DNA of 64,000 nucleotides from a virus (Duplodnaviria; Heunggongvirae; Uroviricota; Caudoviricetes). The notes beneath the pieces were generated by a model. The model did not search any database. It worked only from the letters and a program-made list of their open reading frames with translations, and was not told the origin of the DNA. The translations under genes and the position numbers were made by a program. Below, piece by piece: positions 718-62,000 of this stretch. How positions within the stretch are numbered: the stretch's first letter is position 1; each line of letters opens with the position of its first letter. The stretch is taken from positions 23,474 to 87,473 of IMG/VR virus record IMGVR_UViG_3300013104_000019; one strand, 5' to 3'.

Positions 718-750
718 AAAGAGAGTGACTTCGGTCACTCTCTTTTTATT
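718..750 (+). terminator. intrinsic terminator (UUCG tetraloop hairpin plus U tract)
   Basis: agagagtgacTTCGgtcactctct followed by TTTTTATT. Confidence 0.75.
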
Positions 751-790
751 CCCTCGATTCATCTAGTGTCGGTAACATACAGAGGACATC

Positions 791-1468
791 ATGGCAGAAG
801 TCAGGGCAATGAATAAGAAGCTGGAAATACTGACGGAAGCAATTCCGTTGAAAGAACGGCTGGACATGGTTAGCGATTTCAATTACGGTAGGTTGACGGC
901 AGTAGTCAGTACCTACGTGAGCGACGCCAAGAAGCAACCCATGATGGAGTTTCTGAAATTGATCGCAGATCTTCCGAGTTTCATTGCCAGCAAGCTGGAA
1001 GAAATCGGTACACCGGCTTTCGTTTCTCAAGAAGCCACGCCGTTCAATCAACCGTTGGTGGAAATGGCACCGGTTGGTCGCGAGGAGTTTCTCAACGTCT
1101 TGCGCGATCAGATCAAGAACGAACTCCTCATGCCGAGTTCGAAGAATGGCGTCTTCGGTGGCAACATGCACTCGAAGCCGTACTACATCAAGGCGAACCG
1201 ATTCAATCAGTTTCTCATCTCTTCGATGGGTAGTAGCTCGTGGCCGACGTTGCTGCGATGGGATGATGGTCCAGAGCCTTCAGAAGAACTTTGGGCAATG
1301 ATTCCGGTCGACGGGATTTACATCTTCGCGGCTCTGACATCGCTCAAGATCCATGTCTGTGTCTGGACCGAGGATGCAGAGCCGAGTATCAAGTCTTGGG
1401 AATGGGAAGAAGGACAGAGCCTTCCTGTTGATCGTCAAGAATTTCAAAAACGCATCGAACTGCTTTAA
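791..1468 (+). CDS. hypothetical protein
   Basis: 225-aa ORF, RBS agaggacatcATG, same-strand operon context. Confidence 0.6.
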   Translation: MAEVRAMNKKLEILTEAIPLKERLDMVSDFNYGRLTAVVSTYVSDAKKQPMMEFLKLIADLPSFIASKLEEIGTPAFVSQEATPFNQPLVEMAPVGREEFLNVLRDQIKNELLMPSSKNGVFGGNMHSKPYYIKANRFNQFLISSMGSSSWPTLLRWDDGPEPSEELWAMIPVDGIYIFAALTSLKIHVCVWTEDAEPSIKSWEWEEGQSLPVDRQEFQKRIELL

Positions 1469-1477
1469 GGAACCGCA

Positions 1478-2701
1478 ATGCAATTCATCGTCAGCAAGAT
1501 CCGCATCCCGCTCGGCGACGAGCACATGGTCACCAGTGTCAAGAGCGGCAACCTGCTCGAAATGACTCGGCATGAACCGGGTGCCAATCCGACCGACTCG
1601 ATCGCAGAGATCAAGCTCATCAAGACCGACATCGAAGGGCAAGTCGTCGATGCGTTCAAAGCGTCGACGCGCGAGATCGAACCGGCGACATTCGGCATGG
1701 GGATGTACAACCGCCTCACCGAAATCGATAACGCATCTTACGATGTCGAAAACGTACCGGCAGGTTACGCAATCGGCATGATCTTCTGGTCGACAGAAAC
1801 CGGCGACTATCAGCTGCGTCCGTCAATGATCGCACGCGGCAAAGACTGGCAAGCCATCATCGAAGTCACCCGTACGGCTTCCCAGTTGAAAGTCGAAGAG
1901 AGCGAAATCATCGACTGGGAGCGCATGTCGCGTGCTGACCGCATGGAGTTCGTGCTGCGCAAGTTCTCCGAGCTGCTCGACCAAGAGCCACTCACGAAAG
2001 ACGAAGCACTTCGTATTGCCACGCATCGTCACTACAAGGGCGGCCTCTATCGTGAACTCGGCAAGATTCGCAATGCCGACGACGGGAACGTCGCATCGCG
2101 CGTGCTCTACTTGCATCTGTTCCCGCACGAGAACAGTGCATGGCATCGTGACGCAGAAGAATTCCACGGCTTTCTCGATACCGGCACGCAGCGTTTTGCA
2201 CCGATCGAAGATACATTGCCGTTCATCCTGAATGACGACGGCTTGTCGACGGAAATCAAGGTCGTGCTGCGCCAACTCGACGACAAGCCCGAAACGGGTA
2301 AGGTCTTCTTCGGCGGCTCGGATGTCGACAAACATCTGACCGAACTGAACGAGCGCGCTCGCTCGGAACTGCTCATCGGTGAGTATGATCATCCCGAATA
2401 CGATCAAGCCGATGAGCGCCGCTGGTATGCGTTGCAGAACGATCGTGCGTGTTGCCGCTTCATGGGCTTCTCGGTGTCGGATGTCACGACGCTCAAGGGC
2501 AAACGTGTCAAGGCGCTGGTCGCGAAGGTGCAACCGTACGGTCCGTTGGCCATGGACTTCATGCAAGCCATGCGTACTTCGATGGTTGGCTTCGGCATGC
2601 GCGCCATGTGCATGGACACGGTCGAAGATCTGGGCGATGGCAAGCTCGTCAACTATCGAACGGTCGATAAGATCATCACGTTCGATTTCGTGAAGAAGTG
2701 A
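1478..2701 (+). CDS. hypothetical protein with central DUF1653-like motif
   Basis: 407-aa ORF. Segment HRHYKGGLYRELG...VLYLHLFPHENSAWHR resembles the DUF1653 signature (YRHYKG...VVY..LY...WVRP). Followed by GC hairpin at 2709-2730. Confidence 0.6.
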   Translation: MQFIVSKIRIPLGDEHMVTSVKSGNLLEMTRHEPGANPTDSIAEIKLIKTDIEGQVVDAFKASTREIEPATFGMGMYNRLTEIDNASYDVENVPAGYAIGMIFWSTETGDYQLRPSMIARGKDWQAIIEVTRTASQLKVEESEIIDWERMSRADRMEFVLRKFSELLDQEPLTKDEALRIATHRHYKGGLYRELGKIRNADDGNVASRVLYLHLFPHENSAWHRDAEEFHGFLDTGTQRFAPIEDTLPFILNDDGLSTEIKVVLRQLDDKPETGKVFFGGSDVDKHLTELNERARSELLIGEYDHPEYDQADERRWYALQNDRACCRFMGFSVSDVTTLKGKRVKALVAKVQPYGPLAMDFMQAMRTSMVGFGMRAMCMDTVEDLGDGKLVNYRTVDKIITFDFVKK

Positions 2702-2708
2702 AGTGACG

Positions 2709-2730
2709 TGCGGGGGATTCGTCCCCCGCC
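2709..2730 (+). other. stable GC hairpin without U tract (processing site or weak terminator)
   Basis: gcgggggattcgtcccccgc. Confidence 0.4.
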
Positions 2731-2745
2731 GGATGAGGAGGCTCT

Positions 2746-3621
2746 ATGGGCTTAGATGTGTCGCTGTATAAGTGTCCTAACCTCAACTACGCGATGAAGA
2801 TGGAGCAGGCGTACGAAGCGGCGTTGGATCAAGTCTACGAGGAGTGGAATGATTTCTGCAAGAATCATTCACCGACACAGCAAGAAGAGGATGAGTTCAA
2901 CAAGAAACGAATGGCATTGAAGGACAAGTTCGAGATCGAGGGCTACAACCACAAGAGCCTCGAACGGATTCGGTTTGATTCGAAGACGGAGCCGGAGCAT
3001 CTCTTCAAGATCGGCTATATGCGCTCCAGCTACAACGGAGCAGGGATCAACTCGGTAGCGAACGTATTTGGTCTGCCTGATCTGTACACGATCTTCGAGA
3101 TCGACAACGAAGATTACTTTCAGGAACACGACTGGGACACCATTTACCAGAACGTAAAGGACGCGCTGGAGAAGTGGCAAGCGCATGCGAGTAGTCCGGC
3201 TGGTAAGTACTGGGTGCACACCTTCCGTCCGAGATTTGCCAGTAGCAAACTCAGCACTACTGGCCAGCTGATTCCGGAAGGCATCACCAGCGAACACGAA
3301 GCGATTGAGCGTCTGAACGAGAGCTACCTGAATAACAAGGAAGAAATCGACAAAGACGAATGGCGCTTGTCAGGATGGACAAGCCATAAAGGTGAGTTTT
3401 ATCCCAAGCCGCTGAAAGTCACCGCTATCGTCGCTGGTGCTTGGAATCCTGAGCAGCCGCTTCATTTTCGCAATATGCCAGTAACGTATCTGGTGTGTGA
3501 GCGAGAAAACGAGGATACCATTCAGTGGTACGTCACAGCGCTCCAGATCGTTCAAGAGATGGTTGAATGGATTCTGGAGCATCCGGATAAGGATCAGTTC
3601 TTCACAGGCTGGTCAGGTTAA
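2746..3621 (+). CDS. hypothetical protein
   Basis: 291-aa ORF, RBS gaggaggctctATG. Confidence 0.6.
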   Translation: MGLDVSLYKCPNLNYAMKMEQAYEAALDQVYEEWNDFCKNHSPTQQEEDEFNKKRMALKDKFEIEGYNHKSLERIRFDSKTEPEHLFKIGYMRSSYNGAGINSVANVFGLPDLYTIFEIDNEDYFQEHDWDTIYQNVKDALEKWQAHASSPAGKYWVHTFRPRFASSKLSTTGQLIPEGITSEHEAIERLNESYLNNKEEIDKDEWRLSGWTSHKGEFYPKPLKVTAIVAGAWNPEQPLHFRNMPVTYLVCERENEDTIQWYVTALQIVQEMVEWILEHPDKDQFFTGWSG

Positions 3622-3635
3622 GAAAGGAGGAAGCA

Positions 3636-4142
3636 ATGTCGATCTGGTCGGAAAGTAGATTGAAGTGGGAAATCGAGAATGGTCCGTTCTCGTATTTCAA
3701 AAAGTTCAAGGAGGAGCACGAGTCTCGCCTTAAGGAAGCGAAGACTACTGAAGATACCGAAGCATTGGAGCTTGCCAAAGACGCCATCGTGTCGATACCG
3801 GCACGTTACGTTTGCTGGAACAGCGACAACAACATGCCGATGGAACTGGATGGTCGATTGGTCAACAGATACGGTGACGGCCAATTCGTTTTCCGGTGTG
3901 ACTTTGCGTTGCCTACTCCGGCGACCAAGACATATGCAATGCTGTTCGGACTCGACGTCGTCTTCGTACCGTTCTTTGAGTCCGAATTCTGTCTTCTCGA
4001 TGTTCGTTCCTTCAGAGGCATCTTCGAGTGGATGACATCCAATGTTCCGGAAAACGAGAAAAGCTCGCTACCGGAACAACTGGAGAAGGAACTGCGTGCG
4101 TACCAACGTTACCTTTCATTCGAGGGCTATGACACGGAGTAA
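3636..4142 (+). CDS. hypothetical protein
   Basis: 168-aa ORF, strong RBS aaaggaggaagcaATG. Confidence 0.65.
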   Translation: MSIWSESRLKWEIENGPFSYFKKFKEEHESRLKEAKTTEDTEALELAKDAIVSIPARYVCWNSDNNMPMELDGRLVNRYGDGQFVFRCDFALPTPATKTYAMLFGLDVVFVPFFESEFCLLDVRSFRGIFEWMTSNVPENEKSSLPEQLEKELRAYQRYLSFEGYDTE

Positions 4143-4146
4143 CACC

Positions 4147-4518
4147 ATGGAAGAAGACGAGGTCAGAAGACCGACTCACGATCTGTTTTGTCGGCAGTGT
4201 ATCGCAGACAGTCCCAACACGCATGTATCGTGGTTTCTGATGGCCTCATTCGCGTACTACTTCCTGAACGAGTCCCTCATTACCGATGCGTTGTACGATG
4301 AGATTTACCAGTGGCTGGAGAAGAACATCGAACAAATCGATCACGTCCACAAACATCTCATCGAAAAGGACATGTTCTCAATTGGCAGTGCGTACTATCT
4401 GAGAGAATATCCGAAGATCATTCAGGTATCGACGCACAACTTGCTTGATAACTTGCGCTTAACAGCAGCACCGCAACCGAGAGATTTATGGAAAAGGAAA
4501 ACCTGCCCTACGCAGTAG
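4147..4518 (+). CDS. hypothetical protein
   Basis: ORF 4042..4518 trimmed to the ATG at residue 36 (MEEDEV), preceded by ggag. The upstream part overlaps the previous gene. Confidence 0.5.
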   Translation: MEEDEVRRPTHDLFCRQCIADSPNTHVSWFLMASFAYYFLNESLITDALYDEIYQWLEKNIEQIDHVHKHLIEKDMFSIGSAYYLREYPKIIQVSTHNLLDNLRLTAAPQPRDLWKRKTCPTQ

Positions 4519-4724
4519 TGCAGCGCTTGCGACTGGTTGACATCTTGCTCGACCAGCAGGGCTTTATCAATCGCGGAGTATTGATGGAATACTTCGGGAT
4601 TTCGATGCCAGCCGCAAGCAACGATCTCGGACTGTACAAAGAGATCGCTCCGAACAACATGACGTACGACTTGTCGAATAAGACGTACGTGAGAACCGAA
4701 ACCTTTCAACGGGTCTGGAAATGA
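4488..4724 (+). CDS. small hypothetical protein (78 aa), overlapping neighbours
   Basis: ORF with gagag 5 nt upstream. Overlaps the upstream gene by 31 nt and the downstream gene by 4 nt. Confidence 0.35.
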   Translation: MEKENLPYAVVQRLRLVDILLDQQGFINRGVLMEYFGISMPAASNDLGLYKEIAPNNMTYDLSNKTYVRTETFQRVWK

Positions 4725-5332
4725 AATTCATCTTCAACGATCGCAATCGAGCGATTTGCGATGTGTTCAGCCACGCATTGCAAGGTACTCTGCCCAATCT
4801 CGAAGTACGGCATTGCAACTTCGAAGCCATTTCGAAGGACGATTACAAGATCCTTTTTACCCCCGGTAATTCGTACGGACAGATGACCGGGGGTTTCGAT
4901 TTGGCAGTACGTAACGTCTGGCCGGCTGCTGAAGCCTATGTTCAAATGGCAATTAGCGAGTCCCGAAATGGGATGTTGGCGGTTGGTGATTACGTGATGG
5001 TTGGCTTGCATGCGGCTATGTCTTTGATTCCGCAAAAGCGCCTCATCTACGCGCCGACCATGCGCATCCCGATGGTGATTGCCGGTACGGAAAACGTCTA
5101 CTGGGCGTATCGCGCTGCCTTCCAAGCATTAGAAGGAGCGGCGCGCGGGATGATCTTCACTGATGAAGACGCTGTGCTCATCCCTGCTTTTGGGACGAGT
5201 GCCGGTCACATGGACCCGCTCAAAGCTGCGATGCAGTGCAGGCTGGCATACGAGCACGTCCATCGTCCGCCAGTCGAAGTAACGAGCCGGCAGATGTTTG
5301 CTGACCATCAAGCCATTGCTCAATGGGTTTAA
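4721..5332 (+). CDS. macro-domain-like (ADP-ribose binding/processing) protein
   Basis: Segment DDYKILFTPGNSYGQMTGGFDLAV parallels the macro-domain core D-h-IVNAAN..L.GGGGVDGAI (Asn, then a Gly-rich loop, then a hydrophobic A/V). This is a pattern-level call only. Confidence 0.4.
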   Translation: MKFIFNDRNRAICDVFSHALQGTLPNLEVRHCNFEAISKDDYKILFTPGNSYGQMTGGFDLAVRNVWPAAEAYVQMAISESRNGMLAVGDYVMVGLHAAMSLIPQKRLIYAPTMRIPMVIAGTENVYWAYRAAFQALEGAARGMIFTDEDAVLIPAFGTSAGHMDPLKAAMQCRLAYEHVHRPPVEVTSRQMFADHQAIAQWV

Positions 5333-5333
5333 G

Positions 5334-5651
5334 ATGAAAGCAGATCAAGTAAAAGACGCCATCGGGAAAACGGTTACTGTCAATGGTTTCCGTGATCTCG
5401 GAATCGACCCGGACATGCGCCGCATCATCGGTCAGGAATGTGTGGTCGTTAAGCAGTGTAAGAGCGGCCTTGTGCAGATCAAGCACGGCAAAAGCTTTTA
5501 CTCTGTTCCCCTTATCAATCTTGACTTGAAAATCACTGTAACGTTTGATGGTTGGAGTAAATGTGATTCGGGTATGGGGTGCGTAGAAACGGGCGTTTGC
5601 TATGCAATGGCGCATGGCGAACCGGATCAATGCGGCATGAAAAAGGAATAA
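5334..5651 (+). CDS. hypothetical Cys-containing protein
   Basis: ORF 5298..5651 trimmed to ATG (MKADQ) placed directly after the previous stop. Has CDSGMGC..C motif. Confidence 0.45.
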   Translation: MKADQVKDAIGKTVTVNGFRDLGIDPDMRRIIGQECVVVKQCKSGLVQIKHGKSFYSVPLINLDLKITVTFDGWSKCDSGMGCVETGVCYAMAHGEPDQCGMKKE

Positions 5652-5653
5652 AC

Positions 5654-6676: not shown

Positions 6677-6757
6677 CACTAAAAACTCATCGGCTGGAGC
6701 ATTATGTGGAAGGCTGCAAAGTCTTCCACTCGTACGAAAGCAAAAAAGGAGACCGCG

Positions 6758-7009
6758 ATGTCGGCTGCTTTGATGGGGGTTGTAGGTGAAACATTGGGGT
6801 TGATCCAAGAGAAACTTTTCCACGGACATTTCGACGCATCGGAGCGCGAAGAAATATACGGGGATGCAAAGGAACTACTCTTCAACAACAAAATCCCGCC
6901 AGAGGAATCCAAGCTGCGCGCGAAGTCGCTCGATGAACTGGAATCGAGATATCCGGAACTCGTGTCCTATCTCATCTCCGGCAAGCTAACTTCGGTTCGT
7001 TGGTGCTAA
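6758..7009 (+). CDS. small hypothetical protein
   Basis: ORF trimmed to the ATG after strong RBS aaaaggagaccgcgATG. N-terminus MSAALMGVVGE resembles the start of the next gene. Confidence 0.5.
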   Translation: MSAALMGVVGETLGLIQEKLFHGHFDASEREEIYGDAKELLFNNKIPPEESKLRAKSLDELESRYPELVSYLISGKLTSVRWC

Positions 7010-7138
7010 TCCAACAAGGGGGTTCCGAAAGGAACCCCTGATATGCTGTTAAGTGGTAGAACTTGGTATGTGTTTTTAATATGCCAAGGCATGGTTTGTA
7101 GCTGTATGTTCGAAGTGCAACCAAAGGAAAGACAAGAA

Positions 7139-7702
7139 ATGGCAAACGACGCTAAGAAAGCCGCTCCGGCAAATAAAGAAACCGCAATGGGTTCGGCGCT
7201 GAAAGATGCACTGGCTAAGAGCGGGGGCCTGAAAACCGTACACACGAAACCGACTTCGAAGAAGAAAGAAAAGCCGTACAAACAAACCTACGAAGAAGGC
7301 ACTGCGCAAAGCGCGGAACAGACCAAAGCCGCATCTGTTGAACCGCAGAAGGTCAAGAAGGGTGAAGCACCGGATGCGAAGAAAGCCATCACGACGGTGG
7401 CTCGCAAGATCGCCAGGAAGGTGAGCACCAAGAAGCCCAACGCTCCGGGTGTTGCCAAACCGGCCAATGCTCCGACTCCAGAGAACAAGCCGGCTGAAAA
7501 GCCGTACTCGCCGTCGGTGGTCAAGGCGTACAAGGAGCAACTCACGCATGAGTTGAAAGCGCTCATCCGTAAGGCTGACGATGCGGGACTGCTCATCCAC
7601 ATCCCGATCGTCAATGGTCGTCCGTTCGTGAAGTTCCACGACAAGGCCACCTACAAGCCCAAACAACCAGTCAAGCAAGAACAACAGCAAAAGACGGCAT
7701 AA
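7139..7702 (+). CDS. Lys/Ala/Pro-rich basic histone-H1-like protein with structured C-terminal domain
   Basis: ORF trimmed to MANDAKK after RBS aaaggaaagacaagaaATG. About 130 aa of KKAAPANKE.../KPxxAP low-complexity basic repeats, then a non-repetitive C-terminal domain. UUCG terminator follows. Confidence 0.6.
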   Translation: MANDAKKAAPANKETAMGSALKDALAKSGGLKTVHTKPTSKKKEKPYKQTYEEGTAQSAEQTKAASVEPQKVKKGEAPDAKKAITTVARKIARKVSTKKPNAPGVAKPANAPTPENKPAEKPYSPSVVKAYKEQLTHELKALIRKADDAGLLIHIPIVNGRPFVKFHDKATYKPKQPVKQEQQQKTA

Positions 7703-7707
7703 AGTCA

Positions 7708-7740
7708 GCAGAGAGGAGTCTTCGGACTCCTCTCTATGAC
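7708..7740 (+). terminator. intrinsic terminator
   Basis: agagaggagtcTTCGgactcctctct. Confidence 0.65.
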
Positions 7741-8679: not shown

Positions 8680-8720
8680 CTCGGGTAATGGTGTGCATGT
8701 GACCTTTCTGAGAGAAAACG

Positions 8721-9511: not shown

Positions 9512-9545
9512 GGAAGGGGACTTCGGTCCCCTTCTTTTTTTGTCG
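9512..9545 (+). terminator. intrinsic terminator
   Basis: ggaaggggacTTCGgtccccttc plus TTTTTTT. Confidence 0.8.
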
Positions 9546-10474: not shown

Positions 10475-10483
10475 GGGGTTCAC

Positions 10484-13138: not shown

Positions 13139-13168
13139 GAGGAGGCTTCGGCCTCCTCTTTATGCCGT
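13139..13168 (+). terminator. intrinsic terminator with TTTATGCC tail
   Basis: gaggaggcTTCGgcctcctc then tttatgccg. Confidence 0.7.
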
Positions 13169-13211
13169 CAAGAGCTTGGCCATTTTATGACCAATTTAAC
13201 CGGGACTCACC

Positions 13212-17502: not shown

Positions 17503-17533
17503 CAGCCCTCCCTTCGGGGAGGGCTTTTTATTC
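17503..17533 (+). terminator. intrinsic terminator
   Basis: cagccctcccTTCGgggagggct then ttttattcc. Confidence 0.8.
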
Positions 17534-17552
17534 CCTAATAACGAGAAGCACC

Positions 17553-32497: not shown

Positions 32498-32516
32498 GCC
32501 TAGCGGTGCTAGGGGG

Positions 32517-32548
32517 AGCCGGGTGGACACCCACCCGGCTTTATGCCC
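32517..32548 (+). terminator. intrinsic terminator with TTTATGCC tail
   Basis: agccgggtggacacccacccggct then ttatgccc. Confidence 0.7.
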
Positions 32549-32606
32549 TCGATTTATCGCTTTTTACTGGGTTAGTCGATTGTGTGGAATAACTAAGGAG
32601 TGAATC

Positions 32607-33590: not shown

Positions 33591-33620
33591 CGGGGTCTTC
33601 GGACCCCTTTCTTTTTTTGT
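33591..33620 (+). terminator. intrinsic terminator
   Basis: ggggtcTTCGgacccc then tttctttttttg. Confidence 0.8.
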
Positions 33621-35131: not shown

Positions 35132-35159
35132 CAAACTGGACGGAGAAGTAACGGCATAA

Positions 35160-35179
35160 GGGGAGGCTTTCGCCTCCCC
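35160..35179. terminator. bidirectional terminator between convergent genes
   Basis: ggggaggctttcgcctcccc. On the minus strand it is followed by CTTATGCCGT. Confidence 0.65.
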
Positions 35180-38968: not shown

Positions 38969-38998
38969 ACGGGGGGCCTTTGGCTCCCCGCTTATGCC
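38969..38998 (+). terminator. intrinsic terminator with TTATGCC tail
   Basis: cggggggcctttggctccccg then cttatgccc. Confidence 0.7.
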
Positions 38999-39022
38999 CT
39001 AAGGAGGACAAGAGCCCAAAAG

Positions 39023-40733: not shown

Positions 40734-40760
40734 CGGGGGCGATTTGCCCCCATTATGCCG
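40734..40760 (+). terminator. intrinsic terminator with TTATGCC tail
   Basis: gggggcgatttgccccc then attatgccg. Confidence 0.65.
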
Positions 40761-40783
40761 TTAGGACCAAGTGAGGAATAACA

Positions 40784-41508: not shown

Positions 41509-41523
41509 CCCTGTAGGAATGGA

Positions 41524-41560
41524 AAGCACGCTGGCGTCAAGCCGGTGTGCTTTTTATGCC
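41524..41560 (+). terminator. intrinsic terminator with TTTATGCC tail
   Basis: agcacgctggcgtcaagccggtgtgct then ttttatgccg. Confidence 0.7.
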
Positions 41561-41618
41561 GTCATTTTGTGTAGTCTTTCTTTTTTTGTCTTCATCTACA
41601 CAAATTACGGGGGCCAGC

Positions 41619-43983: not shown

Positions 43984-44012
43984 CGGGGAGGCTTCGGCCT
44001 CCCCGATATGTC
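43984..44012 (+). terminator. intrinsic terminator
   Basis: cggggaggcTTCGgcctccccg then atatgtcc. Confidence 0.65.
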
Positions 44013-44029
44013 CGCAACAGGAGAAAAGC

Positions 44030-54776: not shown

Positions 54777-54783
54777 TTCTCAT

Positions 54784-54812
54784 GGGGGGCGTTTGCTCCC
54801 CGTTTATGCCAT
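54784..54812 (+). terminator. intrinsic terminator with TTTATGCC tail
   Basis: ggggggcgtttgctcccc then gtttatgcc. Confidence 0.65.
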
Positions 54813-54815
54813 TAA

Positions 54816-54838
54816 TTACATTCGAAGGAAAAATCATG
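54816..54838 (+). promoter_or_regulatory. leader motif, copy 6
   Basis: ttACATTCGAAGGAAaaatcATG. Confidence 0.5.
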
Positions 54839-55267: not shown

Positions 55268-55301
55268 GAACTCCCTCTTCTTCGTATGAGGGTAGTCAAC
55301 C

Positions 55302-55326
55302 TTTTATGAAATTCGAATAAATTAGG
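55302..55326 (+). promoter_or_regulatory. second copy of the (T)ATGAAATTCGAATAA motif
   Basis: ttttatgAAATTCGAATAAattagg, upstream of 55342. Confidence 0.45.
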
Positions 55327-55341
55327 ACCAAGGGGTATCAC

Positions 55342-55653: not shown

Positions 55654-55663
55654 CCAACACGGG

Positions 55664-55695
55664 GCCCGGTGTGAAAATCACCGGGCTTTATGCCC
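55664..55695 (+). terminator. intrinsic terminator with TTTATGCC tail
   Basis: gcccggtgtgaaaatcaccgggc then tttatgccc. Confidence 0.7.
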
Positions 55696-55719
55696 TTAAG
55701 TAATCTTGGAGCAAAAGAA

Positions 55720-56595: not shown

Positions 56596-56611
56596 GTCGC
56601 ACTGTAGAAAG

Positions 56612-56642
56612 TTTCAGTCACATATAACCTTGTCGATATTGG
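56612..56642 (+). promoter_or_regulatory. related motif C (TTTCAGTCACATATAACCTTGTCGATATTGG)
   Basis: Shares the CATATAACCTT core with A and B, and TTTCAGTCACATAT with D. Confidence 0.4.
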
Positions 56643-56660
56643 AAACAGTATCGATCCCAT

Positions 56661-56693
56661 TTACATTCGAAGCAATTAGGAGAGTCAATCATG
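56661..56693 (+). promoter_or_regulatory. leader motif, copy 7 (variant)
   Basis: ttACATTCGAAGcaattaggagagtcaatcATG. Confidence 0.4.
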
Positions 56694-57839
56694 CAACAGC
56701 AAGAAAACCAGCAAGAAACCATCGGTCAAGCCGCCATCAAGATGGTAGCAGTCGAGCGCTTCCAACAGCGCCAGAAAGTCTTGGAGTGGATGCTCCAGGA
56801 AGGCAAGCTGCCCGAGACGCGCGGCTACCTCTTGTTCCAACCGGGTCTCATGATCCAGCGAGGAGCCACGCTCCATCAACTGCAAGCTTCGCTCGATCAG
56901 GCTATCCCGGAAGTCAATCGCGAGATCCGGGAAGCGGTCCAGAAGACGATCGCGGAATTCGCTGCAAACAACGCACTCGATCAGGTATCGATCGAGGGCA
57001 AGGTGCTCGGCTATACGGATCACCCGGATGGCGACTTCCGGGCCGAGATCCAGATCTGGACGGACTATGAAAGCATCCCCAGTCTCGTCCTGACGTTCGC
57101 GCTGCGTCTGAGTTCGGAGCGTGGTCGATCGTTCTGGCATTACACCGGGTTCAAGCCGTACCGGGAAGAATGGCCGAACATGATGCTGGAAGTCCCGCAA
57201 GCTGCACCGGCGGAAGAATTCCCGCGTGTCGATCCGGAAAAGATCAGTGCTCCGCCGTTGGGGGCGATCTTCATGTCGCGCGATCAGCGTCTGGGGATCG
57301 AGCCCGAAAGCAAGATCACTGCGCCGACCGAGTTCATCATGGGCGAACCCGAAGTCGCAGTCAAGCTGATGTCGTCGTCGCAGGTTCCGGTGGAAGAAGA
57401 CGGCATGGTGTCGCTCTTCGGGCCTAGTCCGCAGCGCATGGCTGAAATCGCAGCGGGCAATCGGGAAGAAGAACTCTCGATGGGCGAGAAGATCAAGCGG
57501 TTGATCGCTCGCGGGCATCGCATGTCGGATGCCGATCTGGCCATCGGCGGCAAGATGAAGGTCGATGTGAAGACGCGTGCTGACGCGAAGCACTTCCTCG
57601 ATGAAGTGTTCCGCAACGGCAACCTCTGGCTGTACAACCAACTGAACGCGGCGCTCGAAGCCAACGAGCGCAATCTGGACTTCGTGTTCGAGTTGTCGAT
57701 CAACGGCAACTGGCAGGAGTATCGTGGTCCGATCGAAGCCGATGTCAAGCTGAAGGCTTACTGGTCGAAAGATCCGGTGCGTGTGCACAAGGTCTTCTCG
57801 ATCAATGGCCCGGTGGAAATCGGCGTGATTGTTCAATAA
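56691..57839 (+). CDS. hypothetical protein
   Basis: 382 aa. Preceded by promoter-like motif C, TTTACATTCGAAGCAATTAGGAGAGTCAATCATG. A full-length antisense ORF was rejected on composition grounds. Confidence 0.55.
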   Translation: MQQQENQQETIGQAAIKMVAVERFQQRQKVLEWMLQEGKLPETRGYLLFQPGLMIQRGATLHQLQASLDQAIPEVNREIREAVQKTIAEFAANNALDQVSIEGKVLGYTDHPDGDFRAEIQIWTDYESIPSLVLTFALRLSSERGRSFWHYTGFKPYREEWPNMMLEVPQAAPAEEFPRVDPEKISAPPLGAIFMSRDQRLGIEPESKITAPTEFIMGEPEVAVKLMSSSQVPVEEDGMVSLFGPSPQRMAEIAAGNREEELSMGEKIKRLIARGHRMSDADLAIGGKMKVDVKTRADAKHFLDEVFRNGNLWLYNQLNAALEANERNLDFVFELSINGNWQEYRGPIEADVKLKAYWSKDPVRVHKVFSINGPVEIGVIVQ

Positions 57840-57849
57840 GTAGTAACAC

Positions 57850-57880
57850 GGGGCTGGGGTAATCCCAGCCCTCTTTTTTC
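57850..57880 (+). terminator. intrinsic terminator
   Basis: gggctggggtaatcccagccc then tcttttttcc. Confidence 0.8.
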
Positions 57881-57895
57881 CTTAAGGAGACCATC

Positions 57896-58231
57896 ATGAA
57901 AAAGACTCTGCTTTTCCTCGCAACTATCCTGTCGGTATCCACCGCACAAGCGGGCATCACCTGCGTCTACACCAAGACCAAGGTTCTGTCCAACGGCTAC
58001 CTCGCAGTCGAGCATCCGATCACGGTGTATCGTGAACCGAACACCACGTCAGAATCGAAGACCATCACGGAGCCATCGGCGTACTACGTCACTGGCAAGA
58101 AGGACGGCTTTCTCAAACTGGCAGATGCTCGCTACTACGAGAAAGATCCGAACTACGCTTTCTCTGGCTGGGGGAAAGTGAAGGACTTTGACTCAGTTGC
58201 GTTTCGCAACTGCACGGTGGTTGGCCAATGA
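57896..58231 (+). CDS. small secreted protein (signal peptide)
   Basis: MKKTLLFLATILSVSTAQA. RBS aaggagaccatcATG; bidirectional terminator follows. Confidence 0.55.
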   Translation: MKKTLLFLATILSVSTAQAGITCVYTKTKVLSNGYLAVEHPITVYREPNTTSESKTITEPSAYYVTGKKDGFLKLADARYYEKDPNYAFSGWGKVKDFDSVAFRNCTVVGQ

Positions 58232-58245
58232 GGCGCGGGCATAAA

Positions 58246-58265
58246 CGGGGGGCAGTCGCCCCCCG
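58246..58265. terminator. bidirectional terminator at the strand-switch point
   Basis: cggggggcagtcgccccccg. The plus side is followed by aaatatgctg, the minus side by TTTATGCCCG. Confidence 0.7.
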
Positions 58266-58292
58266 AAATATGCTGTCCTTCTTTTTTTGTCT

Positions 58293-59702
58293 TCACGCAG
58301 CTTTGGCACGTGTGCGGAACTTCTCCAGCGACTGAACGATACCGTCCATTTGCTTGATGTCGTTTTGCTGGGCAATCTGCTGACGGCTCAGACCCTTATC
58401 TGCCAGCTTAAGCGACATGTTCCACCGCACTGTCGACACCGCATGCGAGAGATACTTCGCACTCGCATCGAGCGACTTCCAATAACGTTGGAAAGTCAAA
58501 TCGACCTTCAACACCACTGCCAGAAGACCATGCAGCTCCTTGAGCAGCTCTCGCCCGTGCTTGGCGATCTCGCCTTTGAAGCTGGTGTCTGCGCCGCTCT
58601 TTTCCTTCTTACTTTCCTCGGCAAACATCTTCTGGGCTTTTTGCGCTTCTTCTCGCATGTACTCCAGCTCTTTGGCCATCTCCGCCCGGTCACGAGCGTA
58701 AGCCATGATTTCCGGAGACGAAACGGCTTGCGAGAACGTACGCAGTGCTTCGTTGATGCCTTCCGGGAACTTCACATTGCCCGAATCCAACTGGTGCTGC
58801 TTGGCAGCGAGCTTGTTCAGTTCCTGCACGAGTACACCATGCACACGACGCGGATTGGCCATCAGCTGCATGTAGTGCTGCTTCAATGCCGGGATGTGTT
58901 CGTCCGGGTTGGACTCCTTACCGACATCGCGTTCAGCAGCTTTGACGAGTTCCCGATACGCATGGCGTGCGTCTTCAAGAATCGTCATCGGACGAGACTG
59001 ATCCACCACTTTGAGCATCCCCATCATCGCCTGGGTGTATTCACCCGTCGACAAATGGTCCATCTGGAGCGCGTTGAGCGGCGGAATGTAGCCGACGTGG
59101 TCTGCCACATGCGGCTTTGCACCGTAATCTTCCTGAGCTGGTACAGGCTTCTTGCCTGCGTTACGCTCTGCCTTCTTGCGCTTCGTGTAGTGCTCCAGCC
59201 CCTGGAGAGCAGCTTTCAACTCAGCCGTCGCTTCCGGACCAGTCTGTGCGCCACACTGCTTGGCGTGCTCTAGCATCTCCTGCTTGATCTTGACTTCATC
59301 GATCATAGTGACCGAAGGCGTCTTGTCATCGTGCCGGTAGAAGAAGTGATGAATCGCGTACGTGATGATAGCCACCACCGCGCCAGCCATGGCAGCCAAC
59401 ATCGCGGCCAAACCCAGATTGATGGCTTCCATCGCCATTTCGTACTTCTCTTCATCGCTCTTCTCACAGAAGCACAGATTGCCCATGGTGGTATCCCCCA
59501 TGGTCGAATCGCACTCCAGTGCCAAGTCCAACGAGAGAACCTTCTGGCTCTCCAGTGCAGACTTGTAGGTGAGGAGTTTGCCGTACTTATCTTCGGCATC
59601 CTCCATTTTGTTGAACTTCACACGGACTTGAGCGAACTGATCCATGTCGCTTGTCATCAACGAGTAAAGATCGTCGAATGGTGAAATTTCGATTCCGCTC
59701 AT
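58293..59702 (-). CDS. hypothetical protein with one TM helix (469 aa)
   Basis: Track ORF (to 59807) trimmed to MSGIEISPFDD; the upstream 35 aa are R/W-rich and overlap the helicase end. Lys/Glu/Ala-rich helical protein with hydrophobic segment LGLAAMLAAMAGAVVAIITYAI. Antisense ORF 58287..59273 rejected. Confidence 0.5.
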   Translation of the reverse strand: MSGIEISPFDDLYSLMTSDMDQFAQVRVKFNKMEDAEDKYGKLLTYKSALESQKVLSLDLALECDSTMGDTTMGNLCFCEKSDEEKYEMAMEAINLGLAAMLAAMAGAVVAIITYAIHHFFYRHDDKTPSVTMIDEVKIKQEMLEHAKQCGAQTGPEATAELKAALQGLEHYTKRKKAERNAGKKPVPAQEDYGAKPHVADHVGYIPPLNALQMDHLSTGEYTQAMMGMLKVVDQSRPMTILEDARHAYRELVKAAERDVGKESNPDEHIPALKQHYMQLMANPRRVHGVLVQELNKLAAKQHQLDSGNVKFPEGINEALRTFSQAVSSPEIMAYARDRAEMAKELEYMREEAQKAQKMFAEESKKEKSGADTSFKGEIAKHGRELLKELHGLLAVVLKVDLTFQRYWKSLDASAKYLSHAVSTVRWNMSLKLADKGLSRQQIAQQNDIKQMDGIVQSLEKFRTRAKAA

Positions 59703-59703
59703 T

Positions 59704-61920
59704 TTACCAATTTGCCCAAGAAGGTTTAACAGGCTCGTCGTATTCCAACTTGCCGCTCCAATCTGCTTCCATTCCTTCCATCTCTGCGAAGTTCTCAAGC
59801 GCCGCACACTGCTCTTCGAACACCCACTCCGGCAAGAACTCCGGACCCGGATACAACGGACTCTGAGTCAACGGATAGTTCTCAATCGCAGCATTGGGTA
59901 CAGGACCGCCACCCAAGATCTCATTGACTTGCTGCTTACTCCACGCCATGATGTCGTGTGAGCGTGTCGAGATGTTGGGCTTGTCTCCCGTATCCAACTT
60001 CACGTTCCAGATGTGCACGGGACTGTCCTGACCATTACGATCAGTACGTGCGACGGCTTGTTCGTACTCGTAAGAGCGAAATGGCACGTTCATCATGATC
60101 GTGTTGTTCGCCATCACAAGCGGCACTGCTGTCGAGAGCGAAGCGAAGGTCGCACACAGCGGGTTGACGTCCGGATTCTTCTCAAACGTCCCTACGTGAG
60201 CTGCAAGGTCGTTATTGGTTGCTCCGTACACCAGAATTGGCCGGTAACCCAGTTTCTTCAACTCCGCATTGGCTGCATCCACTACCGGTACGTAGGACGT
60301 GAAGATGATGGTCTTCTTCTCGGCCTGATCGATGATTTCAGCAATCGTGATCGGCACGTACTCATCCTTACCGCCCTTGCTGTCCTTGACTTCGAACCAC
60401 TTGCCACGCAGCATGTCCTCGTGACACTTCACGCGTGCCTGACCCAGTACCTTACCCAAAGCCTCACCCTGCACCTTGAGCATGTAGTACTTGATGATGG
60501 AACGGATGTCTTTGAACTTGTCCCGCATCTCCTTCGGAAGAACAGGCATGATGACCTTCTTCTCGTAGTGATTACAGAACGCACTCATGTCGCGCATTTC
60601 CTTCGGGTCAAAGCCTTCCCGGATTTTCGCGATGTACGACTTGTACAGTTCGTACTCCTTCCACTTGTCTTCCTTGTGACCTACGATAGTCGCCACCAGT
60701 TGAGCCGTCACGCCTTTCTTGGGCAGAGCCACTCGCTCGAAGTACGCCAAGATGTCCTTATACTGCTTCTCGTACGACGACATGTTGCGCTGGTAGTACG
60801 CCACTCGCTCCTTGACGAACTTCACCATCTGTTCCTTGATGGCTTCGAGCGTATAGTCATCGCCGTTATCCATCTTGACGGCGACTTTGTGCGTGTGCAC
60901 TTCGTTACTCACCACGCTACGCTTGGAGACGTGGAAGTGCACATTACCCATGCGGTGATGCAGGATGTCGTTAGCCGCACTGGAAGACTTGCCGTAGATG
61001 GCCTGAAAACGCCGCTGAGCGTCTTCGTCGAAGAAGGGGTCTATCGTACTGAACAGGGGCGTAGCTTCCCGTCCTACGGCCTTAATTGGCGTCCCAGAGG
61101 ACCAGATCACGTGATTGCTGCGCGTATAGCGACAGATCTCACGGAAAGTCTCGGAACGCAGCGAGTCGTACTCGTTCAAACCGTGCGATTCGTCCAGTGC
61201 AATCATCACGTTACCGCTTACGCCAATCTTTCTCAGATGGCTAAGCAGCTCAGGTAGCGCGTCGAAGTGACAGATCAGGTACTTGTCCTGACGTGTCGGT
61301 GCGCGATCCATGAGCGAATGCCAGTAATGCGGCACCCGCTTGAACCGCTCTTCGAAGGTGGCTGCCCAAACGCGCTCGACTGCGTTCTTCGGACACACGC
61401 AAATGAGAATGTTCACCCCCAAGCACAGCGACAAGCCGATACACATCAGCGTCTTGCCCGTACCCGGATCAGCTCCAAGCAAATACCCTTTCAGCTGGTA
61501 CTTCGGCACCACCTCGTTGTAGATGCCAAAGAACTCCATCTGATGGTCCATCATCGTGACGTTGAGTTCATTCAGATGGGTGTAATTCAGGATGTTCGGA
61601 TGCTCTTGACGCGTGGACTTAAGCCACGTGTTTTCAAACATCAGATCGTAAGCACGACGCAAGGCGCGGATGTTGTGGCCTTTCTTGTGCTCAGCGATAA
61701 TGCGGCTGAAGATGTACGCCACATCCACAGCAAAAAACTTGTTGAACGACACCTCGCTATTGGAAATGTGCGTGAACACATTGTCCGCGATCTTGCGTGT
61801 ATTCCAGATGTCGTAGATGGACTTTTGGACGGTGTCACCCGGCAGTCCGGAGATGGTAATCAGGTCCCCTGATTCTCGTACAGAGATGAGTCCGATCAAC
61901 CTCCGCAGGCTCGCAAACAT
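59704..61920 (-). CDS. SNF2/DEAD-like superfamily-2 helicase
   Basis: LGADPGTGKTLMCIG (Walker A), IALDESHGL (DEXH box), WSSGTP (motif III), YEQAVARTDRNGQ (motif VI Q..R..R.GQ), with a ~240-aa N-terminal extension. Confidence 0.85.
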   Translation of the reverse strand: MFASLRRLIGLISVRESGDLITISGLPGDTVQKSIYDIWNTRKIADNVFTHISNSEVSFNKFFAVDVAYIFSRIIAEHKKGHNIRALRRAYDLMFENTWLKSTRQEHPNILNYTHLNELNVTMMDHQMEFFGIYNEVVPKYQLKGYLLGADPGTGKTLMCIGLSLCLGVNILICVCPKNAVERVWAATFEERFKRVPHYWHSLMDRAPTRQDKYLICHFDALPELLSHLRKIGVSGNVMIALDESHGLNEYDSLRSETFREICRYTRSNHVIWSSGTPIKAVGREATPLFSTIDPFFDEDAQRRFQAIYGKSSSAANDILHHRMGNVHFHVSKRSVVSNEVHTHKVAVKMDNGDDYTLEAIKEQMVKFVKERVAYYQRNMSSYEKQYKDILAYFERVALPKKGVTAQLVATIVGHKEDKWKEYELYKSYIAKIREGFDPKEMRDMSAFCNHYEKKVIMPVLPKEMRDKFKDIRSIIKYYMLKVQGEALGKVLGQARVKCHEDMLRGKWFEVKDSKGGKDEYVPITIAEIIDQAEKKTIIFTSYVPVVDAANAELKKLGYRPILVYGATNNDLAAHVGTFEKNPDVNPLCATFASLSTAVPLVMANNTIMMNVPFRSYEYEQAVARTDRNGQDSPVHIWNVKLDTGDKPNISTRSHDIMAWSKQQVNEILGGGPVPNAAIENYPLTQSPLYPGPEFLPEWVFEEQCAALENFAEMEGMEADWSGKLEYDEPVKPSWANW

Positions 61921-61970
61921 AGAGACCTCGTTAGTTGGTGTTAAGTAAGCACAAGATTTCGGAATAAAAA

Positions 61971-62000
61971 GGCTAGAGGCAGGTTTCCCCGCCTCTAGCC
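61971..62000 (-). terminator. minus-strand intrinsic terminator upstream of the helicase gene
   Basis: ggctagaggcaggtttccccgcctctagcc. On the minus strand it is followed by TTTTTATTCCG. Confidence 0.7.

Follow-up and report, generated by a model that had tools for sequence, protein, structure and literature searches.

The hairpin-and-tail elements in the window (the whole 64,000-nucleotide stretch of DNA analysed here) are probably transcription terminators of an uncultivated phiKZ-like jumbo phage, and the same element as the motif described in phiKZ and 201phi2-1. A terminator made of a hairpin followed by TTAT-K-YY-GT is already known from these two phages. In phiKZ, the motif BCCYCCCCHWWDGGGRRGGBYTTATKYYGT is found in 61 terminators (Putzeys et al., 2024, PMC10914365), and in 201phi2-1 terminator motif A is found in 59 (PMC11512511). 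It has been shown in these relatives that the hairpin forms in the nascent RNA, that the last RNA base falls within the tail, anywhere from the U preceding the G to two bases beyond the G, and that the virion and non-virion multisubunit RNA polymerases close most transcription units in this way. By analogy, the tail would be part of a terminator for the phage's own polymerases and not a promoter; its role in the window phage is read from phiKZ and 201phi2-1.

Gene content and order identify the source of the window as a phiKZ-like jumbo phage, with a G+C content of 53%. A Peptidase_S80 prohead protease is encoded within the window, the PhiKZ_MCP capsid gene lies beyond its right edge on the same contig, and a 523-aa homolog of the nvRNAP subunit gp123 (PHIKZ123) is encoded just outside it (match to PDB 7ogp_E, E = 2.5e-73). 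The gene order DnaB-x-MCP-x-gp123 is common to this contig and phiKZ. The closest cultured phage is Burkholderia FLC9 (capsid identity 55%).

Thirty-three intergenic hairpins were catalogued across the window and searched for the tail pattern TAT[G/T][C/T][C/T]. Tails are present on at least one side of 20 hairpins, and the 22 tails comprise 15 exact TATGCC, two TATG with TC or CT, and five TATT variants, each 0-4 nt from the stem (stem to TAT). The elements are as follows.

718..755, plus strand: hairpin 718-745 (cUUCGg loop, dG -16.7) with tail tTATTCCCTC (T variant)
2710..2729, plus strand: GC hairpin (aUUCGu) lacking both a T tract and the tail; start codon 2746 is 16 nt further on
7018..7039, plus strand: GC hairpin (GAAA loop), then gaTATGCTG, whose ATG is start codon 7043; doubtful tail
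7693..7740, minus strand: hairpin 7740-7704 read on the minus strand, with ttTATGCCGTC; the tail is antisense and lies between two plus-strand genes. Read on the plus strand, hairpin 7704-7740 (UUCG) abuts start codon 7736 and is tailless
9512..9542, plus strand: hairpin (UUCG) with a plain T7 tract, an ordinary terminator without the tail
13139..13169, plus strand: hairpin 13139-13158 (UUCG) with ttTATGCCGTC; next gene start 13212
17504..17537, plus strand: hairpin 17504-17525 (UUCG) with tttTATTCCCTA
21003..21034, plus strand: hairpin 21003-25 (loop CTT) with TATTTTTTT, a T-rich tail variant
22840..22866, plus strand: hairpin (UUCG) with a plain TTTTTTCCG tract
23564..23611, plus strand: long hairpin 23564-23598 with ctctTATGCCGTA, then early-promoter-like ACATATTAC at 23636
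23547..23606, minus strand: the same hairpin 23564-23598 read on the minus strand, with gcttTATGCCGGA; antisense tail over the stop codon of gene 22882-23556
27679..27707, plus strand: hairpin 27679-27698 (UUCG) with TATTCTCCC (T variant)
32516..32550, plus strand: hairpin 32516-32541 (loop ACAC) with TATGCCCTC
33592..33618, plus strand: hairpin (UUCG) with TTTCTTTTTTT, then early-promoter-like ACATATTAC at 33639
35150..35179, minus strand: hairpin 35179-35160 (GAAA loop) with tTATGCCGTT, ending the lone minus-strand gene 35185-35931; further along, the minus strand runs opposite plus-strand genes
38970..39001, plus strand: hairpin 38970-38990 (loop UUU) with ctTATGCCCTA
40735..40762, plus strand: hairpin 40735-40751 with atTATGCCGTT; ATG 27 nt past the tail G
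41522..41563, plus strand: hairpin 41522-41554 (loop GUCAA) with TATGCCGTC
43984..44015, plus strand: hairpin 43984-44005 (UUCG) with aTATGTCCGC
48498..48550, plus strand: long hairpin 48498-48541 with TATGCCGAA, 5' of an RNase H gene (likely start 48576)
49664..49694, plus strand: hairpin 49664-49683 (UUCG) with tcTATGCCATC; gene start 49717
50257..50297, plus strand: hairpin 50257-50288 (loop GCAA) with TATGCCCTA
53629..53674, plus strand: two hairpins (53629-53647, UUCG; 53658-53674), both followed by weak T-rich tails that lack TATK
54782..54813, plus strand: hairpin 54782-54803 with tTATGCCATT; gene start 54836
55663..55697, plus strand: hairpin 55663-55687 with tTATGCCCTT; gene start 55720
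57850..57882, plus strand: hairpin with a TCTTTTTTCC tract
58246..58277, plus strand: two-way terminator between convergent genes, hairpin 58246-58265 with aaaTATGCTGTC; no plus-strand gene after
58235..58265, minus strand: minus side of the two-way terminator hairpin 58246-58265, with ttTATGCCCGC, ending gene 58293-59807; no minus-strand gene after
61958..62000, minus strand: hairpin 62000-61971 (GAAA loop) with ttttTATTCCGAA, 5' of an SNF2 helicase gene (59704-61920, minus strand)

A preliminary description of this DNA had called the loops almost uniformly UUCG. TTCG is the commonest loop, but it is found in only 12 of the 33 hairpins (11 as cTTCGg); the others have GAAA, TTT, ACAC, GCAA, or longer loops. 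The conserved (T)TTATGCC(G/C)T tail reported there is real: all twelve coordinates of the TTATGCC type check out, with the one at 49683 reading TCTATGCC and not TTATGCC. For the related tails placed on the minus strand, a TTATTCC variant is present at 61971 on that strand, but TTTTTATTCC at 17530 belongs to the plus strand. Seven window hairpins have ordinary or weak T-rich tracts (9512, 22840, 33592, 57850, and others).

The window contains 15 copies of TTATGCC where 4.4 are expected, and none of 100 shuffles reached at least 15. Twelve or 13 of the copies are directly 3' of a GC-rich hairpin, and away from hairpins the word is not enriched in the window (2-3 free-standing copies vs about 4 expected in total). 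Hairpins with a perfect stem of at least 7 bp have 13 tails against 0.33 expected, whereas the control region 20 nt further downstream of the same hairpins has none. Enrichment of 6-mers, which uses no pattern, ranks TTATGC, TATGCC, and TTTATG at the top (p about 1e-10). Conservation also extends outside the search pattern: counting after the tail G, G/C is found at +3 in 19 of 22 tails, T at +4 in 16, and A at +6 in 14, giving the consensus (T)TTAT[G>T]CC[G/C]TnA. These data show, at the sequence level, that the tail is under selection, which bears out the earlier observation of a GC-containing tail in place of a plain U tract.

Twenty of the 22 tails are downstream of a same-strand gene, three of these at convergent gene ends. 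We give virtually no credence to chance, or to the tail being a by-product of the ribosome-binding-site and start-codon context of the next gene. In two listed ORFs (48543 and 55690) the earliest in-frame ATG is the one inside the tail, and at 7042 the tail ATG is the start codon itself. However, the counts refute this explanation, both ORFs have a better start with a ribosome-binding site 28-31 nt further on (48576 and 55720), the next start lies anywhere from 20 to 166 nt away, and tails occur at convergent gene ends.

Tails are also enriched in phiKZ (47 vs 2.3 expected in the first 150 kb), Burkholderia FLC9 (6 vs 0.15), Ralstonia RsoM3USA (5 vs 0.32), and Erwinia RAY (4 vs 0.08), whereas the controls Ralstonia RSL1 and Xanthomonas XbC2, which are jumbo phages but not phiKZ-like, have no TATGYY tails. 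Sixteen IMG/VR relatives (capsid identity 47-100%) were compared on the 3' side of the capsid gene: (T)TTATGC(C/T)(G/C)T is present at every locus and the stem sequences are unrelated; the same locus in phiKZ, FLC9, RsoM3USA, and RAY likewise keeps the tail with unrelated stems. SPN3US has the form TTATTT, and PCH45 has mostly plain U tracts. As judged from these genomes, the tail is under selection for its particular bases independently of the stem, and it follows part of the phiKZ-like phage lineage and not the host.

Published 5'- and 3'-end maps of phiKZ were compared with its genome at hairpin-plus-tail sites. RNA 3' ends map at -1 (8 sites), +1 (8), or +2 (6) relative to the tail G/T, although ONT 3' ends are uncertain by about 2 nt and may have been trimmed. 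This range (-1 to +2 of the G) agrees roughly with 3' ends at the U residues before ATGCC, which the preliminary description had named among the outcomes that would refute its proposal. Of 25 phiKZ tail terminators whose 3' end is mapped, none has a start site within 3 nt, and of 103 phiKZ hairpin+TAT[G/T] sites, one has a start that close to the G; phiKZ promoters, where present, are 18-59 nt downstream of the tail at variable distance. Because 3' ends map at the tail and starts do not, the tail is read as part of the terminator and not as a promoter. In 201phi2-1, terminators halted transcription in vivo in a reporter assay in uninfected Pseudomonas, and their efficiency during infection exceeded 99%. 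The identification of the hairpins as terminators is upheld by both relatives. Host polymerase is also stopped by 201phi2-1 terminators, so the element may not be specific for phage polymerases.

The preliminary description noted that the tail resembles an upstream promoter box. The tail does resemble a promoter word: it holds TATG, which is the consensus at start sites of late promoters read by the phiKZ nvRNAP and their necessary core, with G as +1 and with single substitutions crippling (Yakunina et al., 2015, PMC4666361). A composite element, also proposed there, in which transcription stops at the hairpin and nvRNAP restarts at the G of TATG as the late promoter of the next gene, is nevertheless unlikely. 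TATG is present in 17 of 22 tails, the pocket residues of gp123 are largely kept in the window phage, and 8 of 16 tails have the next start codon 25-32 nt past the G with a ribosome-binding site between; however, a compact genome needs this distance anyway to keep the hairpin clear of the ribosome-binding site. Mapped phiKZ late starts sit at free-standing TATG, and the start-site counts given above argue against restarting at the tail. Five tails are TATT, late promoters have nothing that corresponds to the conserved CC(G/C)T, and free-standing TTATGCC is not enriched. No same-strand gene follows the tails at 35158(-), the convergent pair 58243(-) and 58269(+), or the antisense tails 7701(-) and 23555(-).

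A signal for RNA processing or stability, also raised earlier, would have a host or phage RNase cleave or trim at hairpin-UUAUGCC, so that the mapped 3' ends are products. We consider this very unlikely. ONT maps cannot separate termination from processing, and stable 3' hairpins protect mRNAs, but the conserved bases beyond +2 are missing from mapped RNA ends, so a signal in the mature RNA would not need them. The 201phi2-1 terminators block read-through in the reporter assay, and the tail persists in phages of such different hosts as Pseudomonas, Burkholderia, Ralstonia, and Erwinia; RSL1 and PAK_P3, other phages of these hosts, have plain tracts or none.

Many phiKZ elements read ACRRCATAA-hairpin-TTATGYYGT, symmetric with tails on both strands, and published maps include two-way terminators, six in phiKZ (PMC10914365) and 15 in 201phi2-1 (PMC11512511). 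The tail could accordingly be the lower part of a longer palindrome, kept for pairing with the upstream arm or for two-way function. For the window this is extremely unlikely: 18 of 20 tailed hairpins are one-sided (23564-23598 and 58246-58265 are the exceptions), the upstream flanks checked (13139 and 35160) are not complementary to the tail, and symmetry cannot explain why one particular sequence is retained across phages. Binding of a phage protein to the DNA or to read-through RNA (a termination factor, an antiterminator, or a stoperator-like repressor) is highly improbable as well. An asymmetric conserved word of 9-11 nt at many intergenic sites, oriented with transcription, would fit such a site. 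Stoperators of cluster A mycobacteriophages resemble such a word. An antitermination layer has been suggested for 201phi2-1 (PMC11512511). However, no known protein is a candidate, every copy of the tail lies 0-4 nt from a hairpin and coincides with mapped RNA ends, and it is simpler to suppose that the polymerase itself binds there.

For a tail acting as part of the terminator, we propose that it stands in for a long U tract. UUAU would form the weak end of the RNA:DNA hybrid. The G, C, C, and (G/C)T are mostly past the RNA end and therefore must act as DNA; they may slow forward translocation through a pyrimidine at -1 and G at +1, as in bacterial pause sites. The gp123-type beta-like subunit, whose pocket reads TATG at late start sites, would most likely capture the non-template TATG in that pocket and hold the polymerase while the hairpin forms, so that TATG drives pausing. 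In phiKZ, the four-base pocket sits beneath the beta lobe, and only the promoter complex has shown it (IUCrJ 2026, PMC12809450). The homolog in the window phage keeps S144, F151, R156, H331, S334, and Q466, with conservative changes K158R, H185Y, Y399F, and Y406F. In the transcribing complex the pocket has been described as incomplete, and the lobe would have to move for TATG to be captured during elongation. Since five of 22 tails have T for G and single TATG substitutions cripple the promoter, strict reading of TATG cannot explain every tail. Among relatives, pocket and G-type tail show no clear co-variation in a small sample, and PCH45 keeps most pocket residues despite its U tracts.

The closest known system is the phiKZ/201phi2-1 motif, which shares a GC-rich stem-loop, often UUCG, followed by TTAT-K-YY-GT, at most gene-cluster ends, oriented with transcription and sometimes bidirectional; the window phage also encodes phiKZ-type RNA polymerases. 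It differs in that its tail is almost fixed as TATGCC(G/C)T, whereas the Y positions in phiKZ are mostly T, its elements are mostly one-sided where many in phiKZ are palindromic, and its stems occur in either purine/pyrimidine polarity. Canonical Rho-independent terminators likewise have a GC-rich hairpin, U residues, and release a few bases past the stem, but here the U tract is only 2-5 U, interrupted by A, and followed by conserved G/C bases. The phiKZ late promoter has the same four bases, and its reader gp123 has a homolog with the stacking residues kept. Every tail adjoins a hairpin and has CC(G/C)T conserved past the G, whereas late promoters stand free of hairpins and show no conservation there, and RNA ends rather than starts at phiKZ tails. 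In Escherichia coli, the CRE pocket of the beta subunit reads non-template bases near the active site in promoter complexes and during elongation; a non-template G just past the active site increases hairpin-dependent pausing, and intrinsic termination is reduced in the pocket mutant D446A (Petushkov et al., 2015, PMC4499132). The gp123 pocket, under the beta lobe and reading four bases, is comparable by analogy only. The early-promoter-like ACATATWAC in this phage follows the terminators with motifs at 23636 and 33639 and also the capsid gene. PeSL cassettes of T4-type phages are modules of an early promoter and a stem-loop in intergenic regions, and the two features also occur together here after some terminators. 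PeSL cassettes, however, have a sigma-70-type promoter and a loop without a conserved tail, whereas in the window phage the promoter-like motif is separate from the tail and missing at most tails.

In phiKZ, 61 intrinsic terminators have the common sequence BCCYCCCCHWWDGGGRRGGBYTTATKYYGT, a stem-loop with a TTAT region on its 3' side (Putzeys et al., 2024, PMC10914365). In phage 201phi2-1, the same motif is present in 59 terminators, and a reporter assay carried out in Pseudomonas chlororaphis showed that eight of this phage's terminators stop transcription (PMC11512511). The tail of the window phage, the word (T)TTATGCC(G/C)T directly 3' of GC-rich terminator hairpins, gives the logo TTAT[G17/T5]C20C19[G/C]19T16, which fits the phiKZ-type hairpin plus TTATKYYGT, and the terminator sequences in the phiKZ supplement closely resemble those of the window (for example, GCCTCCCTTCGGGGAGGC TTTATGTTGT). 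Judged by sequence, the window tail is the published phiKZ/201phi2-1 terminator motif, so the kind of element that the window contains is already known.

The window has 15 copies of TTATGCC where 4.4 would be expected, a count attained by none of 100 shuffles, and inspection of the contexts placed 12 or 13 copies immediately 3' of a GC-rich inverted repeat. Among 33 hairpins catalogued between genes (genes called by codon usage), 20 carry TAT[G/T][C/T][C/T] at 0-4 nt from the stem on at least one side. They bear 22 tails, comprising 15 exact TATGCC, two TATG with TC or CT, and five TATT. Conservation continues outside the search pattern (G/C in 19/22, T in 16/22, A in 14/22), and the window consensus is (T)TTAT[G>T]CC[G/C]TnA. 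Pattern-free 6-mer enrichment after the window's hairpins ranked TTATGC, TATGCC, and TTTATG at the top (p ~1e-10). Nearly all tails (20/22) lie 3' of a same-strand gene, where a gene or operon ends; two remain, both antisense copies, on hairpins that separate plus-strand genes. Perfect stems of at least 7 bp have 13 tails against 0.33 expected, and a control window placed 20 nt downstream has none; these counts dispose of chance or start-codon context as a realistic explanation. Many phiKZ copies would fit a tail that is merely the lower part of a longer palindrome, but the tail is one-sided in 18 of the 20 tailed window hairpins, and this account is highly improbable. A collection scan with TACATTCGAAGGAA was discarded, as its matches arose mostly by chance.

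All tail coordinates in the preliminary description hold, with one change of strand: the tail at 17530, assigned there to the minus strand, is on the plus strand. The near-uniform UUCG loops described there were an overstatement, as TTCG closes 12 of the 33 hairpins (11 of them as cTTCGg). Among untailed hairpins, four have plain T tracts, three have weak T-rich tracts, and six have nothing (two of these abut start codons). Strong GC hairpins at 2710-2729, 7018-7039, and 7710-7735 (+) lie 0-16 nt 5' of a start codon and show neither T tract nor tail on the plus strand; the last has a tail on the minus strand only. They are unlikely to end plus-strand transcription.

Gene content identifies the window as phage DNA, including a phiKZ-type Peptidase_S80 prohead protease, an SNF2 helicase, thymidylate synthase, dCTP deaminase, RNase H, and tail-fibre-like proteins. 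Megablast with 12 kb of the window found no close DNA match among cultured phages. The same phage is found in ENA as a metagenome contig of 244.9 kb and in IMG/VR as a contig of 244.6 kb; over 9 kb, the IMG/VR copy shows 98% identity. PHROG and Pfam scans found no RNA polymerase genes within the window. The first 10 kb past its right edge encode DnaB, the capsid protein PhiKZ_MCP (740 aa), and two further proteins of 383 and 523 aa. The larger of these two matches PHROG 2943 ('polymerase'; 4.8e-143) and PDB 7ogp_E (E = 2.5e-73), which is PHIKZ123 (gp123), the beta-like subunit of the phiKZ non-virion RNA polymerase (nvRNAP) and chain E in its structure. On one contig with the window, this gp123 homolog adjoins the PhiKZ_MCP gene some 6-8 kb past the right window end, and it is the one subunit on which assignment of a phiKZ-type multisubunit RNA polymerase is based. 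Gene order from DnaB to gp123 matches phiKZ gp118-gp123. The window also has five intergenic copies of TTTcAgTcACATATwAC, a motif that nearly matches the early-promoter consensus of phiKZ (TTTGAGATCTATATTAC in the published table of start sites; PMC10914365), and the virion RNA polymerase probably uses them as early promoters.

Early-promoter-like copies of TTTcAgTcACATATwAC in the window
18390 (+), intergenic copy
23636 (+), intergenic copy
33639 (+), intergenic copy
50217 (+), intergenic copy
56620 (+), intergenic copy

Together, the phiKZ-type genes, gp123 homolog, gene order, and early-promoter-like motifs indicate that the window phage uses a phiKZ-type transcription system. Among cultured phages, FLC9 of Burkholderia comes closest by capsid protein (55%), followed by Burkholderia SURPRISE13 and Ralstonia RsoM3USA; phiKZ-like members from Pseudomonas, Erwinia, Serratia, and Salmonella are at 25-35%. 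Searching with a 964-aa tail-fibre-like protein pointed to Xanthomonas phage XbC2 (genus Mimasvirus), so this protein was set aside in favour of the capsid gene, which gave the right relatives.

Several other window genes are noteworthy. A 143-aa protein (54836-55267, +) has a Pfam RNA_pol_A_CTD domain (3.7e-9), though the phage's own polymerases have no alpha subunits, and no cultured-phage homolog was found at E <= 1e-3. Beside the tail-fibre-like genes, a 577-aa protein (18523-20256, +) has the YadA stalk and membrane-anchor domains of trimeric autotransporter adhesins. The right-edge gene (window 63691-64000 and beyond; L122:9558-10004 in the stretch that runs past the edge) has a weak Pfam match to Acb2_Tad1_hairpin, an anti-CBASS/anti-Thoeris sponge family. 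Two long stretches, 47392-48542 and 49146-49716, have no convincing ORFs. The first contains tRNA-Ser(GCU) and tRNA-Asn(GUU); Rfam matched these two tRNAs and nothing else over the window, with no further family in either stretch. Both may harbour further non-coding RNAs.

Comparison across phages used one hairpin definition throughout and 22-150 kb per genome. Ralstonia RSL1 and Xanthomonas XbC2, jumbo phages outside the phiKZ-like group, served as controls.

Tails after hairpins in phiKZ-like phages and controls
phiKZ (150 kb): 47 observed, 2.3 expected
FLC9: 6 observed, 0.15 expected
RsoM3USA: 5 observed, 0.32 expected
Erwinia RAY: 4 observed, 0.08 expected
Ralstonia RSL1 (control): 0 TATGYY tails
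Xanthomonas XbC2 (control): 0 TATGYY tails

TATGCC is the top post-hairpin 6-mer in FLC9, RAY, and the window. Pseudomonas phage PAK_P3 terminators in the phiKZ supplement have ordinary U tracts. Of the enterobacterial phiKZ-like phages, SPN3US has TTATTT as its top post-hairpin 6-mer, and PCH45 has mostly plain T tracts (top 6-mer TTTTTG or TTTTTT); the TTAT core is thus wider than the G-type tail. These distributions indicate that the tail tracks phage lineage, not host.

The terminator 3' of the capsid gene provides a positional ortholog. It is a hairpin with (T)TTATG(C/T)(C/T)(G/C)T in the window phage, phiKZ, FLC9, RsoM3USA, and RAY, and the tail is present in 16/16 IMG/VR relatives with 47-100% capsid identity. 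Across these 16 relatives the stems are unrelated in sequence and length, with compensatory swaps in some close pairs. Stems free to vary beside a fixed tail are direct comparative evidence that the tail itself is read, and they indicate that it is selected independently of the stem. At the same terminator, an early-promoter-like ..ATATAT(T/C)A(C/T) lies 27-31 nt past the tail's G in FLC9, RsoM3USA, and most of the 16 relatives. Orthologous terminators were also sought in a relative with 80% capsid identity via two other window proteins, which returned only the same phage. Between 49691-58776 and the IMG/VR copy (98% identical), tails are unchanged, and terminators differ only at the tail-less hairpin 53629 (stem G to A, loop TTCG to TACG) and at one spacer base at 54803; at 98% identity this copy is too close to show covariation.

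TATG is the necessary core of phiKZ late promoters, with G as +1, and any TATG substitution cripples the promoter (PMC4666361). The tail contains this core, which gp123 reads, so a composite terminator and promoter, as proposed in the preliminary description, was worth testing. Published phiKZ positions (T001-T066, P001-P004, and P008-P066; the terminators consulted ran to T076) were compared with the first 150 kb of the genome. Mapped late starts fell on TATG's G or one base later, which confirmed the coordinate system. Mapped 3' ends at hairpin+TAT[G/T] sites fell mainly at -1 (8), +1 (8), and +2 (6) relative to the G/T. At the 25 distinct tail terminators whose 3' end is mapped, no start lies within 3 nt. 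Where starts are listed, only one of 103 hairpin+TAT[G/T] sites has a start within 3 nt, and there a second TATG lies 5 nt past the tail's. Twelve sites have a start 6-59 nt downstream, of which five are early promoters at 40-58 nt.

Window evidence points the same way. TATG is present in 17 of the 22 tails, as a tail doubling as late promoter would need, but the other five have TATT, a change of the kind that cripples the promoter (PMC4666361). Start codons cluster 25-32 nt past the tail's G (8/16 cases), which is compatible with a start site and is also the spacing that a hairpin needs to clear the ribosome-binding site. Five tails face no same-strand gene to express: the convergent pair at ~58.25 kb (both strands), that at 35.2 kb, 3' of a lone minus-strand gene, and the antisense tails at 7701 and 23555. 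Late promoters show nothing that corresponds to the conserved CC(G/C)T (PMC4666361), and free-standing TTATGCC, away from hairpins, is not enriched in the window. A promoter as the tail's main function is rejected on the phiKZ end maps and window evidence, and late-promoter activity in addition to termination is improbable. A sigma-70 promoter with the tail as -35 box was also rejected, as several start codons lie only 20-32 nt past the tail; a sigma-70 scan of window bases 1-20000 found fewer sites than in shuffles.

A second motif, (TTAC)ATTCGAAGGAA, lies at a fixed distance 5' of start codons and has a palindromic TTCGAA core. Allowing up to two mismatches, 37 matches were found against 21.8 expected. 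Its role may be that of an extended ribosome-binding site, or it may serve as an operator through which a regulator of translation or transcription acts, and its TTAC recalls the phiKZ middle-promoter element AAanTTAC (PMC4666361).

Copies of (TTAC)ATTCGAAGGAA before start codons
34086, N5 spacing
50303, N5 spacing
54820, N5 spacing
50770, N7 spacing
51748, weaker copy
53096, weaker copy
55311, weaker copy
56665, weaker copy

Transcripts of phiKZ-type relatives end within UUAU-G-Y-Y, 3 to 9 nt past the stem. Most of the conserved tail beyond would then be absent from the RNA, so it would have to act as DNA. An RNase signal, with hairpin and tail as a cleavage or trimming site, was the other suggestion of the preliminary description; it is very unlikely, given conserved bases past the phiKZ RNA ends and related 201phi2-1 terminators that function in a reporter assay (PMC11512511). 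Recognition of the tail by a separate DNA- or RNA-binding protein is just as unlikely, since nothing calls for one.

In Escherichia coli, hairpin-dependent pausing is stimulated when the CRE pocket of the beta subunit contacts a non-template G immediately beyond the active site, and the CRE-pocket mutant D446A reduces intrinsic termination (PMC4499132). The phiKZ gp123 pocket binds TATG as non-template single strand (T-3 A-2 T-1 G+1), with F151 stacking on the G (PMC12809450). This pocket of the phage beta-like subunit is larger and reads four non-template bases. At the tail, UUAU would form the weak end of the hybrid, and a pyrimidine at the RNA end, then G, with a G:C-rich duplex ahead would reproduce the translocation-slowing pattern of bacterial polymerases. 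With the RNA end at the U before G, the elongating enzyme would present the exact TATG register to the pocket, and capture could hold it during hairpin formation, and two to four U would then suffice for release. We tentatively propose that sigma-less phage polymerases use TATG twice, a gp123-type pocket reading it at late starts and at terminators, with the tail as an enlarged CRE-like pause signal; this joint proposal is possible, though doubtful.

The window phage gp123 homolog retains F151, H331, S144, S334, Q466, and R156, with aromatic-for-aromatic changes at 185, 399, and 406. In a comparison of pocket and tail type across six phages, SPN3US, whose homolog has several non-conservative TATG-pocket changes, fits co-variation, and PCH45, with few, does not. 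Pocket capture has weak points: PCH45 keeps the pocket with no G-type tail, five of 22 window tails are TATT, and the gp123 pocket is described as incomplete in the transcribing complex (PMC12809450). No link between the tail and TATG start sites was found in the published work consulted on phiKZ and 201phi2-1 transcription.

These results extend the motif to an uncultivated 53% G+C relative of FLC9 and at least 16 metagenomic relatives. New here are the FLC9-like uncultivated clade, the fixed tail on varying stems, the lineage split among TATGYY, TTATTT, and plain U, and the explicit TATG link. Some phiKZ-like phages lack the G-type tail, so lineage comparison could locate the tail-reading part of the polymerase. 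The tail holds the exact word that nvRNAP reads at late start sites, a coincidence that bears on both start choice and termination in sigma-less, alpha-less polymerases that choose starts with only four bases. If TATG is indeed used twice, one word would mark both starts and stops of transcription units. In practice, the tail can serve as a marker for annotating transcription units and for recognising phiKZ-like contigs in metagenomes.

Canonical intrinsic terminators combine a GC-rich hairpin with an uninterrupted U tract of ~6-8 after the stem. The window shares the GC-rich hairpin (dG -12 to -28 kcal/mol) but lacks the long unbroken tract: its tails have 1-5 T, then A, T, and then G/C-rich bases, and of 54 perfect-stem hairpin orientations, only five have six or more T among the first eight bases. 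With the phiKZ late promoter the window tails share TATG; the promoter starts transcripts at the G, whereas almost no phiKZ tail has a mapped start there, and the promoter is independent of a hairpin, whereas the window tails are hairpin-bound.
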